Part shown: positions 4,030 through 29,113 of the stretch, piece after piece | How positions within the stretch are numbered: position 1 is the first letter of the stretch | Layout of the letters: each line of letters opens with the position of its first letter | Origin: Enterobacteria phage 9g | Sequence record: NC_024146.1 | Reading direction: 5' to 3' (one strand) | Length of the DNA stretch: 56,702 nucleotides | Notes under the pieces: generated by a model | Database searches by the model: none | Told to the model about the DNA's origin: nothing | What the model saw: the letters and a program-made list of their open reading frames with translations, nothing else | Position numbers and translations under genes: made by a program

Positions 4030-4644
4030 TTACTTTTTACACGCTTCAAGAAATTCCCGACGCCATGTGTCACCAGTCACGTCCGGTAATACACCATCAC
4101 CCAATGCAGTACGTCCGCGGAATGCTTTAGTGATGGTTGAGCTTCCGCATACCTGTTTAACACCGCGCGACTCCATGCACATATGTTTTGCATCGATGTA
4201 GACACACACAGCTTTCGGGTCTAAGTGTTCCACGATAGCATCCGCAATCTGATTAGTCAGACGTTCTTGGACTTGCAAACGTCGAGCGAAAGCATCAACT
4301 ACCCGAGATAACTTGCTGAGACCGACGATTTTTCCATTTGGGACATACCCAACCACTGCATGACCAATAATAGGAGCCATGTGATGCTCACAATGACTAT
4401 ATACAGGGATATCACGGACGATGACCATTTCATCACAGTTTTCCCCACCATCTTCAAATGTCTTGAACAGGGATGCGATATCAACAGAATAACCCCCGAA
4501 CCATGTAGCATAAGCCTTAGCTACACGATCTGGAGTTTCTACTAGACCTTCACGCAAGTCATCGCCACCTTCAATCAACTTTAAAATCTTTTCAATACTG
4601 TGCGAAATTTCTGCTCTGTTTGTCATCTTTGTAAATTCATTCAT
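4030..4644 (-). CDS. folE: GTP cyclohydrolase I (FolE)
   Basis: Clear FolE core: ETPDRVAKAY, VIVRDIPVYSHCEHHMAPI, GLSKLSRVVDAFARRLQVQERLT. The longest ORF begins with TTG at 4680 and overlaps queD; the ATG at 4644 with an upstream AAGGA is preferred (4626 is an alternative). Confidence 0.88.
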   Translation of the reverse strand: MNEFTKMTNRAEISHSIEKILKLIEGGDDLREGLVETPDRVAKAYATWFGGYSVDIASLFKTFEDGGENCDEMVIVRDIPVYSHCEHHMAPIIGHAVVGYVPNGKIVGLSKLSRVVDAFARRLQVQERLTNQIADAIVEHLDPKAVCVYIDAKHMCMESRGVKQVCGSSTITKAFRGRTALGDGVLPDVTGDTWRREFLEACKK

Positions 4645-4670
4645 GGTTTGCAGTTTCCTTGTGTGGTCAA

Positions 4671-5204
4671 TTATTTGCAATAGTTAACATGGCATTTGGA
4701 CGTTTCTTCAATGGTGCATTCTACCAATTCAACACCATATTGGTCAAGTAGTTGAGGACCAATTACGTCAACCATATATGCAGCTAAGTTTTCCGCAGTT
4801 GGGTTGAATGGTAAAGCTACCAAAGAATTAAAGAAAGGATCGTAATCTTCATCCGTCACTAAATTGTTCTCACGTGCAAACTTAGTTGATGCAACAACAA
4901 TGAGCGAATTAATCATGCTGTCTTGTTCCCAATGCAGGAACTTATGATCCCAATTATCTTCCAACCACTGGCAGAGCGTAGTTTTAACCACACTAAAGTC
5001 GATAACCCGACCTACGTCGTCCAGCGAACCTTCTAGAGCAAATCCACTTACAGACTTAACGTAACCTTCCGACAATGTTTTCTTTGGTGCAACTTTAAAA
5101 TGGAACTTATAGTTGTGACCATGAAGATGACGACATTTGCTTTCATGCCCTACAACACGATGCCCAGCGCAAATCTCATGTGAACGAATAACAGTGTAAC
5201 CCAT
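4671..5204 (-). CDS. queD: 6-carboxy-5,6,7,8-tetrahydropterin synthase (QueD / PTPS family)
   Basis: 177 aa. N-terminal CAGHRVVGHESKCRHLHGHNYKF (Cx..HGH zinc/catalytic motif of QueD/PTPS). Confidence 0.85.
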   Translation of the reverse strand: MGYTVIRSHEICAGHRVVGHESKCRHLHGHNYKFHFKVAPKKTLSEGYVKSVSGFALEGSLDDVGRVIDFSVVKTTLCQWLEDNWDHKFLHWEQDSMINSLIVVASTKFARENNLVTDEDYDPFFNSLVALPFNPTAENLAAYMVDVIGPQLLDQYGVELVECTIEETSKCHVNYCK

Positions 5205-24245: not shown

Positions 24246-24866
24246 TTACGCTCCAAACTGATCAATATATTCAATGAGCTCTTGCAATTCTTGCTGTAAC
24301 TGCACATTACCACTATTATTCGTCTGAAGTCTAACGAGGCGTTCCTTGATATGCCCAATGTGGTTAGTGCTCACCCGACGCTTCTGTACATCACACCAGT
24401 GAACAACACCATCTTTAATATATGCACGACGTGCTTTACCACGCGGGTATCGCATCGGCCGAATTTCACACTTATCGCCCTCCCACTTAAAGCCCAGGAT
24501 CATAACAGCGTTACCTTCCGTATCAGGACACACGTCAAAGCAACTGGTGAACCCTTTACTGTACATATACTTGTTGAGCGGAATCACACAATCCACATCT
24601 AACAACCAGTACCCGAAGTAAATGTCAACAGTGAACATCATACCCGACACCGGAGCCGACCAGCACATATACATCCGCCCGTCATCCAACTTCTTGACCG
24701 CATTCGGCCGCAACACGAGGCCAGCCTCCTTCCACGCTTTGACCACATTACTTAGGCTGTCATTATGCTGCTCTAATATGGCTACCGCTTTGGCGTACAT
24801 ACCTTCGTCATAACCGAACATTTCTTGTACGTGTGCGTGTGTTATTTCAATTTTACGATTCCGCAT
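24246..24866 (-). CDS. Hypothetical protein
   Basis: 206 aa, ATG at 24866 with AAGGTGAGG upstream; first gene of the long minus-strand block. Confidence 0.55.
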   Translation of the reverse strand: MRNRKIEITHAHVQEMFGYDEGMYAKAVAILEQHNDSLSNVVKAWKEAGLVLRPNAVKKLDDGRMYMCWSAPVSGMMFTVDIYFGYWLLDVDCVIPLNKYMYSKGFTSCFDVCPDTEGNAVMILGFKWEGDKCEIRPMRYPRGKARRAYIKDGVVHWCDVQKRRVSTNHIGHIKERLVRLQTNNSGNVQLQQELQELIEYIDQFGA

Positions 24867-25903
24867 AACCTCACCTTGATGATAATAAATCTGCTAATTT
24901 TGAAATTCAGTTGCCAAGTTTTAATTTATGCAAAGTTTTTGCTATTTGCAACTGTGATATTTTGCGGTGTTTGTATGTGCAATGTTTTTGCTTTTGCAAA
25001 AATTACAGCAGTCTGAAGGTGAGAAATTGCAAATTTATAAAGATCGGTGAAAAAATGCACAATTTATAAAGATCCCGTAATACATAAAACGGCGAAGCGA
25101 AGTGTATGAAAAATAAGGGAAAATTTCGAGGATTGGGAGGTTTGTATGAATTTATATTATTTATAAAGGGGTCCCGTAGGGGTCGTCAGTAGACAACTCA
25201 AAAATAAAAAATCTTTATAAAATTTATATAAATACACACATACACACATTTTTACCTTACTTTTCAAGCACTTACCTCCTTTCATTTTGTATATTAAGCG
25301 ACTATATATGAACAATATGACATATATTTGTTGCGCAACACCTGTGCGTTTTTTAACCAATCGAAAGATTGCTTTATATACGTCCGCGCGTCTAACACAA
25401 AAGAAAAGTGGATTGCAAGCGATTTTTGCTGAGGTAACTCTCGAAGTGAAAGCGATTTGCGAGTTTGAAATTTTGTAGCCCGAAAACGATTCTATTTTAT
25501 GGTATAAATGCCGGATTTTTCGGTGAAAGCCGGCTTTTCGGCGAGGTGGGGTGGCCGAGATCGGGGTGGCGAGTCGCCCATAAGGCGAAAATAGCCGCGA
25601 AAACGGGGCACACAGCGCGATTAAATGGTTGGATCAGTGTAAGGGTGGCGGTGAGGGGTGAAAATGCCCTAAAAACGCGTACAGGGAAGCAGGGAGCGGA
25701 TCGCTGTAAGGGCGTATAAAGCGAGCAAATTGGAGTCTATGGTAATGTACGGAAGAGGGATTCAGGTTCTTAGAGCGCGAATGGTGGTGCTATGGGTGAG
25801 GAATATGTGGTCAGCGGGGTAGCGCGGGAGGTTATGCAGGTACAAAGACGAAAACGCCCCGTTGGACTTCAACAGGGCGCGGATTGTATAATGCAGTTAG
25901 AAG
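24867..25903. promoter_or_regulatory. ~1-kb non-coding region: AT-rich motif-dense half (24867-25460) plus purine-skewed G-rich half (25460-25900)
   Basis: No ORF with a plausible start/SD. Repeated TTTGC(A/G)A motifs; direct repeat AATTTATAAAGATC at ~25027 and ~25059; many G-tracts on the plus strand. Role unknown. Confidence 0.4.
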
Positions 25904-26149
25904 TTATTTATTATCTAATAATACCGCCCAGGTATTATCTGGAAGCGTACCAATTCCGAGAATGCGAACCTTCCACTGAGCGCGAGAGTTGTACCTGTCC
26001 ACAAGTTCTTGCGCTGCATAAGCTGCATTCGCTTCGCTGCTGAGGCGGTAGTCAATGGGGGTAACAACGCACATGTCAAGGCCGACAGCTTTATAGCGCC
26101 GACATTTCGTTTCGGTAGCGGACAGGGTTTTTACATGGATAGCTTGCAT
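25904..26149 (-). CDS. Hypothetical small protein (paralogue of 26393..26638)
   Basis: 81 aa, ATG at 26149 with AGAGGA upstream. Shares MxQAI..K.L.A.T ... A..A..EL ... G.LPD with the neighbouring 81-aa ORF. Confidence 0.5.
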   Translation of the reverse strand: MQAIHVKTLSATETKCRRYKAVGLDMCVVTPIDYRLSSEANAAYAAQELVDRYNSRAQWKVRILGIGTLPDNTWAVLLDNK

Positions 26150-26217
26150 AATAGTTTCCTCTGTTAACTATGCGAAGTGCATATTATTGCCCACTGTTAC
26201 TATGGGCAATGTATATG

Positions 26218-26382
26218 TCACTCAGCGGACACGTATTCTAACGCTTCTGATAGTGTAGCGAAGTGACCATCACTTACCAGATTAATAGCGTACTCAAGTT
26301 TATCTCGGGTCAGGTTGCGAAACTTGTTACGGATGTGATAGCAACGACCGTGATAAATAACCTGGAAATAGTTGCGTTCCAT
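26218..26382 (-). CDS. Hypothetical small protein
   Basis: Start moved to the internal ATG at 26382 (AAGGGGA upstream); the longer ORF overlaps the upstream gene. Confidence 0.4.
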   Translation of the reverse strand: MERNYFQVIYHGRCYHIRNKFRNLTRDKLEYAINLVSDGHFATLSEALEYVSAE

Positions 26383-26392
26383 AATTATCCCC

Positions 26393-26638
26393 TTAAGCAA
26401 CGATGAACGCGTAACCGCTTTGATCCGGGAGCTCACCACCAGCAACAATCTCAAATTCAACACCAGCCTTATTGTTGAAGTTCTTGATAAGCTCCTCCGC
26501 CGCGGCGCGGTGGTTTCCGTAAGCACTCAAATCGTAACGCCACGTGATAGTCAAGGAGCCGTTCCAACCCGTTGCTTTTACGCGATCGCCACGGGACATA
26601 GTTGGAGCGAGGAATTTAGTGATAATAGCTTGAGCCAT
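26393..26638 (-). CDS. Hypothetical small protein (paralogue of 25904..26149)
   Basis: 81 aa, ATG at 26638 with GGAGT upstream. Confidence 0.5.
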   Translation of the reverse strand: MAQAIITKFLAPTMSRGDRVKATGWNGSLTITWRYDLSAYGNHRAAAEELIKNFNNKAGVEFEIVAGGELPDQSGYAFIVA

Positions 26639-26643
26639 GATAA

Positions 26644-26829
26644 TTACTCCGGTAATATTACAGTCACGTTAATATTTGCAATGCGAGCGCACTCGCGGAA
26701 ACCTGTTACATAAGCATCCATTTCGTCATAGGATGCGAAAGTCACGTCCGGGACTGGTCCGTTGTTAATATTCACGCAATATTCGTGTTCGTCCAGGTCA
26801 ACCCAACAATATAGAACGATAGTTTCCAT
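26644..26829 (-). CDS. Hypothetical small protein
   Basis: Start moved to the ATG at 26829 (GGAGGG 8 nt upstream); 61 aa. Confidence 0.45.
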   Translation of the reverse strand: METIVLYCWVDLDEHEYCVNINNGPVPDVTFASYDEMDAYVTGFRECARIANINVTVILPE

Positions 26830-26830
26830 A

Positions 26831-26905
26831 TTATTTGCCCTCCGTATAATACAGACCCGCAACTATTGGAGCTCCAAACACCAAGAAAGCTAATAAGTAG
26901 AACAT
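26831..26905 (-). CDS. Candidate 24-aa hydrophobic peptide
   Basis: Not in the ORF track. MFYLLAFLVFGAPIVAGLYYTEGK; AAGGGGG upstream; its stop sits 1 nt before the next ATG. Confidence 0.25.
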   Translation of the reverse strand: MFYLLAFLVFGAPIVAGLYYTEGK

Positions 26906-26907
26906 AA

Positions 26908-27387
26908 TTAATTGCCCCCTTTATTATTGAGCCCGTTGAATTTACGCCATGCGTAGAATTCAATCGTTGCATTATTAATATTCCAACCATTAACTTTCGC
27001 AAGGTCACGGACGTTACCAATAGTTGGCACATTATTAGGTAACATATTATCCAGGGCATTCCAAACGTCTGCGCATTTACCCTTAACTGGGCGGCGGACC
27101 CCGTTGCGCGTTTCGCTGCGCGTTTTACTTTTAACGGGAGCGACAGGAGCTTGCTGTGTGGTCACTTCCACGACAATTGCTTTATCAGCTTCCACCAGAT
27201 CGTTAGCTGCCTTATTAACTGCGCTTTCGCTGAACCAGTAGCGGCCACCATTTTCCATGGGTTCCTGGTGGATAAAACTATTTGCTGTCGCTGTGTCTAC
27301 GTCCAGAAACTTTTTCAAGGCACGGCGAGCGTTAGACATATTGGTGAAAAAGCGAGCATCTTTTGCTACGCGAGTGATAGTAACCAT
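26908..27387 (-). CDS. Hypothetical protein
   Basis: Start moved to the ATG at 27387 (GGAGA 8 nt upstream); 159 aa. Confidence 0.5.
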   Translation of the reverse strand: MVTITRVAKDARFFTNMSNARRALKKFLDVDTATANSFIHQEPMENGGRYWFSESAVNKAANDLVEADKAIVVEVTTQQAPVAPVKSKTRSETRNGVRRPVKGKCADVWNALDNMLPNNVPTIGNVRDLAKVNGWNINNATIEFYAWRKFNGLNNKGGN

Positions 27388-27463
27388 TGTGATTATCTCC
27401 ATGCTGTTCTAGCGGATTGCTAGTGGGAGCCCACTGTTACAATGGGCAACCATTAGCACGCTA

Positions 27464-27769
27464 TCATTGTTGAATAGCTTTCGCTATCATTGTAATAAAG
27501 CAGAACACAGACCACAGACTATTCGCTTGGCATACTGCGCGACCATACATTACGCTATGAGAGCTGACAGTGCCGTCCTCGTTAATGCGAATATACAACG
27601 CGGTGCTGGAATATTTTTCGTTTCCCGGGAGCATTACTAAATACTCGTCAAAATCCCAGTCCCCGGCAACTTTTTCCGCTGTAAGGCCCAACTGGTGCAG
27701 GCGCTTGCCAATAATACGTTTGGTGATCATGGACTGGGACATGGGACGCGGTAAGTAAATACTGGACAT
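27464..27769 (-). CDS. Hypothetical protein (first gene of the minus-strand early cluster)
   Basis: Start moved to the internal ATG at 27769 (AAGGGAGA 8 nt upstream); the ATG at 27886 has no SD. Confidence 0.5.
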   Translation of the reverse strand: MSSIYLPRPMSQSMITKRIIGKRLHQLGLTAEKVAGDWDFDEYLVMLPGNEKYSSTALYIRINEDGTVSSHSVMYGRAVCQANSLWSVFCFITMIAKAIQQ

Positions 27770-27954
27770 AATGCAATCTCCCTTCGGGTGAAGCGGGCGC
27801 GGAACCCGTGTCCCGCTTAAAAACCCCCTTAACCCCACGCAGTTATAGTAGGACAACGGGGTATTAGATGCAACTATTATCTGCATTATTTTAGAACTTT
27901 TTTAGTTGTGTTTCATAATAATAACATCCGGGACTATGCGGTAGATGGTGTGCC

Positions 27955-28033
27955 GGAAATACCAGGTAACGCGAGCGTGTCGAAAATACCAGGTAACAGC
28001 ATATGCCGAACATACCAGGTAGCACATACATAG
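27955..28033. repeat. Three tandem direct repeats (period 26-27 bp) with core GAAAATACCAGGTAAC
   Basis: ggaaATACCAGGTAac (27955-), gaaaATACCAGGTAac (27982-), gaacATACCAGGTAgc (28008-); cores at 27959-27968, 27986-27995, 28012-28021. Confidence 0.7.
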
Positions 28034-28070
28034 ACAGCACATAGTGGGCAGGTGGATAGTAACAGATGTA

Positions 28071-28088
28071 ACTATACTGGACAGTATA
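28071..28088. promoter_or_regulatory. Perfect palindrome CTATACTG-GA-CAGTATAG (operator-like) in the divergent control region
   Basis: 8-bp inverted arms with a 2-bp spacer, between the minus-strand and plus-strand early gene clusters. Direct repeats ACGTTATAGTA occur nearby at ~28154 and ~28216. Confidence 0.4.
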
Positions 28089-28374
28089 GTATAGTCATGT
28101 AATAGATAGCACACTAATCAAATAAAAAATAGTAACGCGTGTAATAATAAACAACGTTATAGTAGAGCGCATGACAGTCACATGACGTAACAATCACCTC
28201 ACCGACGATCACGGGACGTTATAGTAACGCCGCGGGGCGGCTCTTAGATCTCTGCCAAGGATTCATCGTTTGTAGATTATCTCGTCACTAGACACTTTAT
28301 ATCCTCACCTCACCTGCCCTATATTGTTCGTATAAAGTTAATTCCGTATATAAATACTCGAGAGGAGATCTATT

Positions 28375-28662
28375 ATGTTCGTTCTGGCTTTCAGTAGTGC
28401 AATATGGCTAGGTATCAACTGGATCCTTGCAATTATATTAGGTCTTGTGATTTGGTATGTGCCGTTTATGCGTTACGCTGTTATTATTTCGCTTGCATAT
28501 TTAGTTGTTAAACATTTCCTCGTATGGTGTGTATGTAACCCACAAGCTGCAGACATCAAACGTAACAAAGCGAACTTCTTTAGTGTGCTTATTTTAGGTT
28601 CACTGATTGTGTACGCATGGTTGCTCGGTGTGCGGAACTTAGGTTGGTTCACCTTGCCTTAA
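28375..28662 (+). CDS. Small membrane protein (2-3 predicted TM helices)
   Basis: 95 aa, very hydrophobic; ATG at 28375 with GAGGAG upstream; first gene of the plus-strand cluster. Confidence 0.6.
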   Translation: MFVLAFSSAIWLGINWILAIILGLVIWYVPFMRYAVIISLAYLVVKHFLVWCVCNPQAADIKRNKANFFSVLILGSLIVYAWLLGVRNLGWFTLP

Positions 28663-28751
28663 TGTGGTCACTAATTGTTGCGGCCGGCTATGTTAATCAG
28701 CTTGCGTATCCTGTTATAGTTATTCCGTTAACGTTAAAGGGGTTTATATGA
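28662..28751 (+). CDS. Candidate 29-aa hydrophobic peptide
   Basis: Not in the ORF track. MWSLIVAAGYVNQLAYPVIVIPLTLKGFI; its ATG overlaps the upstream stop (TAATG) and its stop overlaps the next ATG. Speculative. Confidence 0.2.
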   Translation: MWSLIVAAGYVNQLAYPVIVIPLTLKGFI

Positions 28752-29113
28752 ACGAGAATATAGTTAAAGCCTGGTCTATCTTACGACCACAGCTGAAAGA
28801 CGATCGCGTCGCTTTTGTTTTATGTCCTGCTAACGAATATCGCCGGAAGCTCGAAGAAGTGTTGCGCGAAGATCCTGAGTTCGTTCGCTGTGTGCAACTG
28901 TCGCGCGAGTCATCTGTGGTACAGTTTGATCGTTTCCACCTTCGTTTGGTTTCTCACCACAGAGCTTCGTATGAAGACACTGTTACTCGTACGAGTGGCT
29001 TCCATTGTGATATTGCAATTCTTGACTGCAAACTGGAAATTGGGCAGAAACAAGAGTTATATAATCTCGCTCGTGAACGTCATGGTGAATTATTAATTGT
29101 GGAAGTGCAATAA
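28748..29113 (+). CDS. Hypothetical protein
   Basis: 121 aa, ATG at 28748 with AAGGGG upstream. Confidence 0.55.
   Translation: MNENIVKAWSILRPQLKDDRVAFVLCPANEYRRKLEEVLREDPEFVRCVQLSRESSVVQFDRFHLRLVSHHRASYEDTVTRTSGFHCDIAILDCKLEIGQKQELYNLARERHGELLIVEVQ

Follow-up and report, generated by a model that had tools for sequence, protein, structure and literature searches.

Introduction

Phage T7 has a pac region and a direct terminal repeat (DTR) of 160 bp, and phage T5 a DTR of 10 kb that carries its pre-early genes. The cos site of phage lambda associates the nick site cosN with cosB, which holds R3, R2 and R1 for gpNu1 and a site for IHF; OR and OL of the same phage are operator triplets of period 23–27 bp between divergent promoters. 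Iteron origins are represented by lambda ori, by the iterons of plasmid Rep proteins and by ori/crr of P4. We analyse here a locus that shares some features with each of these elements: the intergenic region between two divergent gene clusters of Enterobacteria phage 9g (sequence record NC_024146.1), which contains three tandem repeats of 26–27 bp. The whole stretch of DNA analysed, hereafter the window, is a single-copy assembly of 56,702 nt, and all positions follow its numbering. As the first minus-strand gene starts at 27769 (relatives annotate it as 306 bp) and the plus-strand cluster at ATG 28375, the true intergenic region is 27770–28374 (605 bp). An earlier note on this DNA gave both starts correctly but placed the region at 27887–28374.

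The dominant feature of the region, which the earlier note missed, is a physical genome end: packaged 9g DNA ends between 28243 and 28244. We propose that the region is the junction of a DTR of about 3.1 kb (25160–28243) with the unique part of the genome, provided with early promoters and with an accessory array of repeats; for this explanation taken as a whole we would give a probability of roughly 0.6. With the concatemer junctions of T7 and T5 the locus shares fixed ends at specific sequences, short repeats flanking the repeat boundaries and, as predicted here, early genes with inward host-polymerase promoters near the ends or inside the repeat. It differs from them in belonging to a siphovirus, in the size of its DTR and in having no homology to their packaging signals.

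Coliphage 9g is placed in the genus Nonagvirus, subfamily Queuovirinae, and the sole megablast matches of 27400–28800 are Nonagvirus phages (JenP2, JenK1, HdSG1, SE1 and others, 92–96% identity). Kulikov et al. (2014, Viruses 6:5077; PMC4276943) described the same region, as a "603-bp intergenic region" that separates the early from the late cluster, on an "originally assembled" sequence of 56,703 bp whose numbering coincides with that of the window; they predicted two divergent promoters in it, Pl and Pr, placed an end at 28,243 and deduced a terminal repeat. Their description mentions neither the three repeats, the palindrome and the ACGTTATAGTA copies, nor the size of the DTR, its left boundary, the invariant block at the terminus and the boxes that flank it (PMC4276943).

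The end of the virion DNA and the terminal repeat

The end and the repeat are placed as follows.

28243..28244, no strand: physical right end of the virion DNA and right DTR boundary (GCGGCTC/TTAGATC), from the 9g reads (PMC4276943) and the DTR ends of HdSG1 and HdK1
25160..28243, no strand: predicted DTR of about 3084 bp, from the DTR boundaries of relatives and the 9g read pile-up at 28,243 (PMC4276943)

In 9g itself, 91 reads start and 23 end at 28,243, from which it was concluded that the virion DNA physically ends there and bears a terminal repeat, to which no size was given (PMC4276943). The records of HdSG1 and HdK1 are PacBio assemblies, linearised where the reads stop abruptly; they contain exact DTRs of 3363 and 3367 bp respectively, and both DTRs stop between GCCGCGGGGCGGCTC and TTAGATCT, that is, to the base, at 28243/28244 of the window. 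A fixed physical end is therefore found in the 9g reads and at the homologous base of the two other records. The left boundary falls at 25160 (HdSG1) or 25163 (HdK1), within a noncoding stretch of about 1 kb; as both boundaries of these relatives map on the window, the DTR of 9g would be 25160–28243. The same sequence stands at both virion ends in HdSG1, HdK1 and also in ECP2304, a phage of the genus Seuratvirus whose record carries an exact DTR of 3695 bp, and it would do so in 9g; the Pseudomonas relative iggy has a DTR of 1091 bp (PMC10484667). In 9g the repeat would contain six small minus-strand genes (from 27769 down to 25904) and a terminator (25880..25854).

The terminus block and the boundary motifs

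The sequences around the cut, and their counterparts at the left boundary, are listed below.

28174..28262, no strand: almost invariant block, presumed site of terminase recognition and cleavage (alignment)
28194..28203, plus strand: TCACCTCACC box 1, whose CACCTCACC core begins 48 nt left of the cut (sequence)
28305..28314, plus strand: TCACCTCACC box 2, whose CACCTCACC core begins 63 nt right of the cut (sequence)
28230..28242, no strand: G+C-rich inverted repeat GCCGC-GGG-GCGGC, directly left of the cut (sequence; invariant)
28154..28164, plus strand: ACGTTATAGTA copy 1, which varies in relatives (TACAGT, TACAAT; sequence, alignment)
28216..28226, plus strand: ACGTTATAGTA copy 2, invariant, 17 nt from the cut (sequence, alignment)
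28282..28294, plus strand: TCGTCACTAGACA, 39 nt right of the cut (sequence)
25183–25195, plus strand: TCGTCAGTAGACA, twin of TCGTCACTAGACA, 24 nt right of the left DTR boundary (sequence)
28347..28357, plus strand: TATATAAATAC, just upstream of the Shine-Dalgarno sequence GAGAGGAG (28361–28368) and of ATG 28375 (sequence)
25225–25235, plus strand: twin of TATATAAATAC, right of the left DTR boundary (sequence)

Conservation was mapped on an alignment of 13 Nonagvirus intergenic regions (9g and 12 relatives). The block that spans the cut is its least variable segment: 3 of its 89 columns vary among the 12 relatives, against 10–48% in the other sub-segments. It stays intact in HdK1, which diverges rightward of it, as well as in JenP1, which is replaced leftward of it, and it is partly kept in Ec1-ASingh. 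The two boxes enclose the cut, and their spelling follows the small terminase TerS. Ec1-ASingh, with a TerS 61% identical, has CACCTCACC at both places; ECP2304 has a differently spelled pair, CCCCACCTA, at -45 and +68 of its own DTR end. Altogether the spelling is the same where TerS is 61–99% identical, and changed where it is 46% identical (Seuratvirus). This co-variation leads us to read the boxes and the block as a recognition site, and the block as the presumed place where terminase recognises and cuts concatemers; surroundings of the cut that are both more constrained and co-varying with the terminase are what a DTR junction should display.

The resemblance to lambda cos lies in this cut within a conserved block, with short repeated boxes nearby that co-vary with the small terminase. 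By contrast with cos, the ends of 9g are terminally redundant and not cohesive, the boxes stand on both sides of the cut, and the 27-bp repeats do not co-vary with TerS.

The two copies of ACGTTATAGTA announced by the earlier note at 28154 and 28216 are indeed there, for about 0.05 occurrences expected per genome. The second copy and the GCCGC-GGG-GCGGC repeat probably take part in the packaging-cleavage site, since both lie within the invariant block; the stem of the latter is not formed in the minimum-free-energy fold, which is no more stable than those of shuffled sequences. The shorter motif TATAGTA is clustered too, with 4 of the 9 copies of the whole window found in 383 bp (Poisson P ~5e-7). 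A phage-specific promoter built on TATAGTA was considered and rejected: GTTATAGTA with one mismatch was found 21 times genome-wide for 15 expected, so that the clustering is local only.

Right of each DTR boundary, TCGTCASTAGACA is followed by TATATAAATAC in the same order and orientation (25183/25225 and 28282/28347), and each of the two motifs occurs exactly twice in the window. Most relatives, and Ec1-ASingh too, have the TCGTCACTAGACA/TCGTCAGTAGACA motif at each boundary; every Nonagvirus locus has TATRTAAATAC at the two corresponding places, and Ec1-ASingh keeps GTAAATACTCGAGAGG. This is suggestive of a pair of terminase signals marking both boundaries, or of two regulated rightward promoters.

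Several other observations concern the left boundary (25159/25160). About 1 kb across it, 24870–25900, is devoid of convincing genes. Just outside the DTR lies a 29-bp tandem repeat in two copies (25018–25074), each with ATTTATAAAGATC, and a ATACACAC microrepeat is found at 25232. The left-boundary motifs are followed on the plus strand by a terminator-like hairpin with a T-run (25332–25348), not unusually stable (fold z = -0.77); taken together, the boundary, TCGTCAGTAGACA, TATATAAATAC and this hairpin might delimit a short transcript, of about 110 nt, in the rightward direction.

Candidate promoters, palindrome and leader

Promoters were read as matches to the sigma-70 consensus, by a scan, inspection of the sequence and alignment.

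27845..27873, minus strand: candidate leftward sigma-70 promoter TTGCAT-17-TACTAT, predicted start about 27838 (sequence)
27888..27916, minus strand: candidate leftward sigma-70 promoter ATGAAA-17-TAAAAT, predicted start about 27881 (scan)
28071..28098, minus strand: candidate leftward promoter ATGACT-16-TATAGT, TATAAT in most relatives (scan, alignment)
28031..28060, plus strand: candidate rightward sigma-70 promoter TAGACA-18-GATAGT, predicted start about 28067 (scan)
28113..28153, no strand: AT-rich tract, GC about 0.28–0.34 (composition)
27770..27838, minus strand: 5' leader of the first DTR gene, with a hairpin (27791–27818) and a Shine-Dalgarno sequence GGGAG (27778–27782; sequence, fold)

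The candidate at 27845..27873 has an invariant -35 and, across relatives, only TACTAT or TATTAT as -10. A TATTTTAGAA block containing the TAAAAT -10 of the next one is common to 9g and to CAjan and yong3 of Seuratvirus. In the rightward direction, GATAGTAAC is invariant in the 12 relatives with this allele of the promoter, and JenP1 has TATAGTAAC; Seuratvirus has TAGACA-17-TACTAT with an AT-rich upstream tract, invariant in 6 phages and directly downstream of the repeat array. Hexamers at 16–18 nt spacing are thus found in both orientations, and TAGACA-17/18-(T/G)A(C/T)(T/A)(A/G)T on the plus strand and TAAAAT on the minus strand are conserved between the two genera. These data indicate that several candidate sigma-70 promoters likely point both ways, in agreement with the published prediction of Pl and Pr (PMC4276943) and with the divergent control region seen by the earlier note. 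The literature that we searched holds no transcript mapping of the region.

The earlier note had also described an operator-like palindrome. The palindrome exists and is perfect, CTATACTG-GA-CAGTATAG, at 28072–28089 (one base away from the position first given; 9+2+9 at 28071–28090), but its operator character finds no support. It is unexceptional, one of 11 perfect palindromes of the window with 8-nt arms and a spacer of 0–4, two of which are overlapping registers of 28072–28089, for about 4 expected; and it is specific to 9g, being kept as a perfect palindrome in 0 of the 12 relatives. Its TATAGT half-sites are accounted for without an operator, because it overlaps the -10 of the leftward candidate 28098..28071.

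The leader folds at -30.3 kcal/mol (z = -1.96) and is conserved in the 12 relatives, even in FritzHoffmann where the downstream gene is replaced. Its hairpin is AAGCGGG...CCCGCTT, and JenP1 carries the leader block twice, before the first DTR gene and before an extra open reading frame (ORF).

The 27-bp repeat array

27950..28028, plus strand: three tandem units of period 26–27 bp, core CGRA-N3-ACCAGG (ATACCAGGTARC in 9g; Tandem Repeats Finder, alignment)

The three tandem repeats are present as the earlier note had it, although the 16-mer it proposed is exact only for copy 2. The copies lie at 27950–27970, 27977–27997 and 28003–28023, with spacings of 27 and 26 bp, and Tandem Repeats Finder reports 27951–28028 with period 27, 3.0 copies and a score of 82. 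The 12-mer ATACCAGGTARC has three occurrences in the 56.7-kb window, all of them in the array, for about 0.02 expected by chance. Among the Nonagvirus phages, 1 of the 30 columns of the 10-nt cores is variable, against 11 of 49 in the rest of the array (Fisher p = 0.025), which suggests that the three repeats behave like selected protein-binding sites.

Conservation among relatives, which the earlier note had proposed as a check, is real but incomplete. The array is present in 12 of the 13 Nonagvirus phages, the exception being JenP1, where about 700 bp of unrelated DNA replaces the module corresponding to 27838–28050 of the window. In Seuratvirus, the homologous array of CAjan counts four units, (C/T)CGRA-N3-ACCAGG; one of them shares with unit 1 of 9g a 19-nt identity, GTGTGCCGGAAATACCAGG, in the midst of unalignable DNA. 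The number of copies is 4 in CAjan, 3 in Greed, 3 in SLUR25, 4 in GottfriedDienst, 1 in ECP2304 and 0 in yong3; Skure is without array too, and so are about 20 further Seuratvirus records. Wherever the cores exist, in both genera, their place is between the divergent promoters, on the upstream side of the rightward one.

Such a polymorphism of presence and copy number could be that of a minisatellite without function, produced by slippage or recombination and carried in a mosaic promoter module; the swap of the whole module in JenP1 and the fact that no binder of the array was identified go in the same direction. We nevertheless find this rather improbable: core positions are kept while spacers diverge, within Nonagvirus and between genera, the 19-nt identity stands in DNA that otherwise cannot be aligned, and the position relative to the rightward promoter is the same in both genera.

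JenP1 and Ec1-ASingh show what else may occupy the place. The JenP1 allele (locus L014, 4570–5290) contains an extra ORF of 102 aa (4632..4940, minus strand) with no Pfam match; in place of the ACCAGG array it has direct ATARYAAC motifs, five or six in number. The equivalent region of Ec1-ASingh (locus L017, 5345–5418 and 5543–5567) has other tandem repeats, GGGTGTAGGCACGC (x2), GGTGGGCnAGGTAT (x2) and AGCGCCTWAC (x3); this more distant relative retains the motifs of the terminus block.

The earlier note took the repeats and the palindrome to suggest a regulatory switch or a set of origin-binding sites. As in OR and OL of lambda, there are three sites of similar period between divergent promoters, and one might imagine that a dedicated repressor or activator of the phage uses the repeats, and perhaps the palindrome, as operators to choose between leftward and rightward transcription. 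The period of about 27 bp, the position between divergent promoter candidates and the conservation of the cores would suit such a function; besides, the different triplet AGCGCCTWAC lies at the analogous place in Ec1-ASingh, as expected if operators diverge with their regulator, and Kulikov et al. suspected a partial repression of closely placed promoters (PMC4276943). However, no regulator gene tracks the array, or adjoins it as a repressor gene does in lambda, and the array is simply missing from yong3 and about half of the Seuratvirus phages, with nothing in its stead; close relatives dispense with it. Its units are asymmetric direct repeats and not the dyad-symmetric sites of a lambda-type operator: the 9-bp dyad TACCAGGTA of the 9g units is not kept in CAjan (GACCAGGTG, GACCAGGGG) and is incidental in 9g, because the conserved core CGRA-N3-ACCAGG is itself asymmetric. 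The palindrome, as said, is not conserved, 9g has no integrase or lysogeny module (PMC4276943), and the small helix-turn-helix (HTH) proteins that the earlier note believed to be encoded nearby reduce to sub-threshold Pfam matches (HTH_7, E = 0.079; Sigma70_r4_2, E = 0.028). A lambda-like switch is thus unlikely.

Iterons of a replication origin, bound by the primase-helicase or another initiator and followed by the unwinding of the nearby AT-rich tract, are very unlikely. The likeness is that of direct repeats near AT-rich DNA (28113–28153 in 9g; in CAjan the array abuts an AT-rich 40-mer), and the primase-helicase is conserved in both genera. Yet JenP1, Skure, yong3 and many other phages without array have a homologous primase-helicase and polymerase, although an origin should be retained with them; the copy number ranges from 0 to 4, and the AT-rich DNA of Seuratvirus is the upstream part of the invariant promoter. 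Unlike iteron origins the array has no cognate initiator: no ORF fits the pattern of a co-varying or adjacent one, and the neighbouring proteins belong to no Rep-like family. For an essential iteron origin as for a dedicated repressor–operator switch, what renders them unlikely is the absence of the array in JenP1, yong3, Skure and many Seuratvirus phages that keep homologous replication and packaging genes.

The proximity of the array to the mapped end, inside the DTR, could further evoke binding sites for the small terminase which, like the R sites of cosB, would position the enzyme for a cut 215–293 bp away; repeated small-terminase sites beside cut sites are known in lambda. This is the most improbable of the functions that we weighed. 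JenP1 has an intact terminus block and a TerS 98.9% identical, but no array, so that the co-variation expected of cosB-like sites is missing; conversely the Seuratvirus TerS is only 46% identical, yet the cores of its array hardly differ from those of 9g. Moreover the Seuratvirus TerS is the same with and without array, and the array of ECP2304 stands about 1 kb away from the end of the DTR.

We therefore prefer to see in the array an accessory set of presumed protein-binding sites, dispensable, and neither an essential origin nor a packaging site.

Other identities were tried and discarded. A known RNA element is excluded by the searches made: Rfam gives no match above noise in 24700–28800, the array RNA has no stable fold on either strand (z = -1.2 and +0.3), and there are no tRNA genes. 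An origin from the host is not supported by blastn, which gives no match in 5,426 E. coli genomes. None of the LexA, DnaA, IHF, sigma-54, Chi and FadR consensus sequences, compared by eye only, fits. A degenerate two-core scan of viral contigs returned mostly chance matches, with true arrays only in two Nonagvirus contigs.

Neighbouring proteins and genes

A protein dedicated to the array should follow its distribution; in a whole-genome comparison, no ORF was shared by the two phages with the array, 9g and CAjan, and missing from the two without it, JenP1 and Skure. The 82-aa protein of the junction was rejected as a partner, being present in phages with and without array. The 164-aa protein of the DTR (26908–27402, minus strand) consists of two conserved domains, one at each terminus, with a variable linker between them, and its homologues (203–205 aa) adjoin the junction in Seuratvirus; its AlphaFold model has a pLDDT of 73 overall and of about 90 in a C-terminal three-helix domain of HTH-like fold.

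Two paralogous 81-aa proteins of the DTR (25904–26149 and 26393–26638, minus strand) belong to phrog_3199, whose homologues occur in Seuratvirus and in many records of rV5-like myoviruses and Campylobacter phages (207 records). On the other side, the first plus-strand gene (28375–28662) encodes a predicted membrane protein of 95 aa; it is missing in JenP1, ESCO3, BRET and PD328, and a gene for an HNH endonuclease takes its place in HdK1, so that the start of the rightward cluster is mosaic.

Proposed working of the junction

Our scheme departs from what is observed, namely where the DNA ends, the repeats, and how these are distributed phylogenetically; the steps added to these we infer. Concatemers would be cut at the conserved block, which would create the right end of the DTR. 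Host RNA polymerase might then start at two or three leftward sigma-70 promoters (about 27850, 27890 and 28075), 150–400 bp inside the right end, and these would drive the operon of small genes that lies in both DTR copies. As it is duplicated in this way, the operon would be expressed first whichever end enters the cell. The rightward promoter at 28031–28060 and the signals at 28282–28357 would serve the plus-strand cluster. The repeats, at about -40 to -115 of the rightward promoter and between the divergent ones, probably bind a factor that is present with or without the array, either a protein of the host or a conserved one of the phage, and could in this way tune the output of the early promoters.

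Several points weigh against this explanation. The DTR of 9g itself is deduced only from relatives, the window being a single-copy assembly; Kulikov et al. were unable to determine the length of the terminal repeat, reported no read pile-up at the left boundary, and left unexplained why read coverage was about 1.5-fold higher in the early half of the genome and changed sharply at 28,243 (PMC4276943). A 3-kb DTR does not account for such a step over half of the genome. All the promoters are consensus matches, and the scan gave 6 candidates for 3.6 expected in shuffled sequences. In an unbiased test for words shared by the two DTR boundaries, an 11-mer was obtained in 6% of shuffles, which is not significant alone; the pair of boundary motifs is for this reason only suggestive. 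As to the factor that would bind the array, neither Pfam nor PHROGs nor the PDB yielded a usable DNA-binding match for the ten neighbouring proteins searched, and the HTH-like or winged-helix-like structural matches of the 164-aa model are all non-significant.

One may go further, as a long shot. Nonagvirus and Seuratvirus might have exchanged the array as a mobile cis-regulatory cassette, which would bring to the terminal repeat a protein of the host or a universally conserved one of the phage, either for timing the hand-over from the takeover genes of the DTR to the rightward cluster, or for holding or pacing the incoming DNA end, in the manner of the T5 injection stop. Separately, the TCGTCASTAGACA ... 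TATRTAAATAC pair might be a new two-part signal by which one terminase marks both ends of a 3-kb repeat.

Significance

For 9g, the core of the region was already published, namely the divergent promoters and the genome end. What is new is the exact extent of the DTR, the invariant terminus block with its boxes, the motifs shared by the two boundaries, and an array found across two genera with a variable number of copies. These are elements of known kinds and change no general concept. What the earlier note observed is borne out, with small corrections of coordinates, and its interpretation holds in part.

Queuovirinae phages (9g, CAjan, the BASEL isolates) are models for the study of 7-deazaguanine DNA modification and of phage defence. 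A DTR at 25160–28243 would give correct genome coordinates for annotation and engineering, with the operon expressed first present twice. The invariant 89-bp block and its flanking boxes offer concrete targets for work on packaging and transduction. Finally, the polymorphism of the array provides natural pairs with and without it, 9g and JenP1 on one side, CAjan and Skure on the other, in which the role of this cis-element could be tested.

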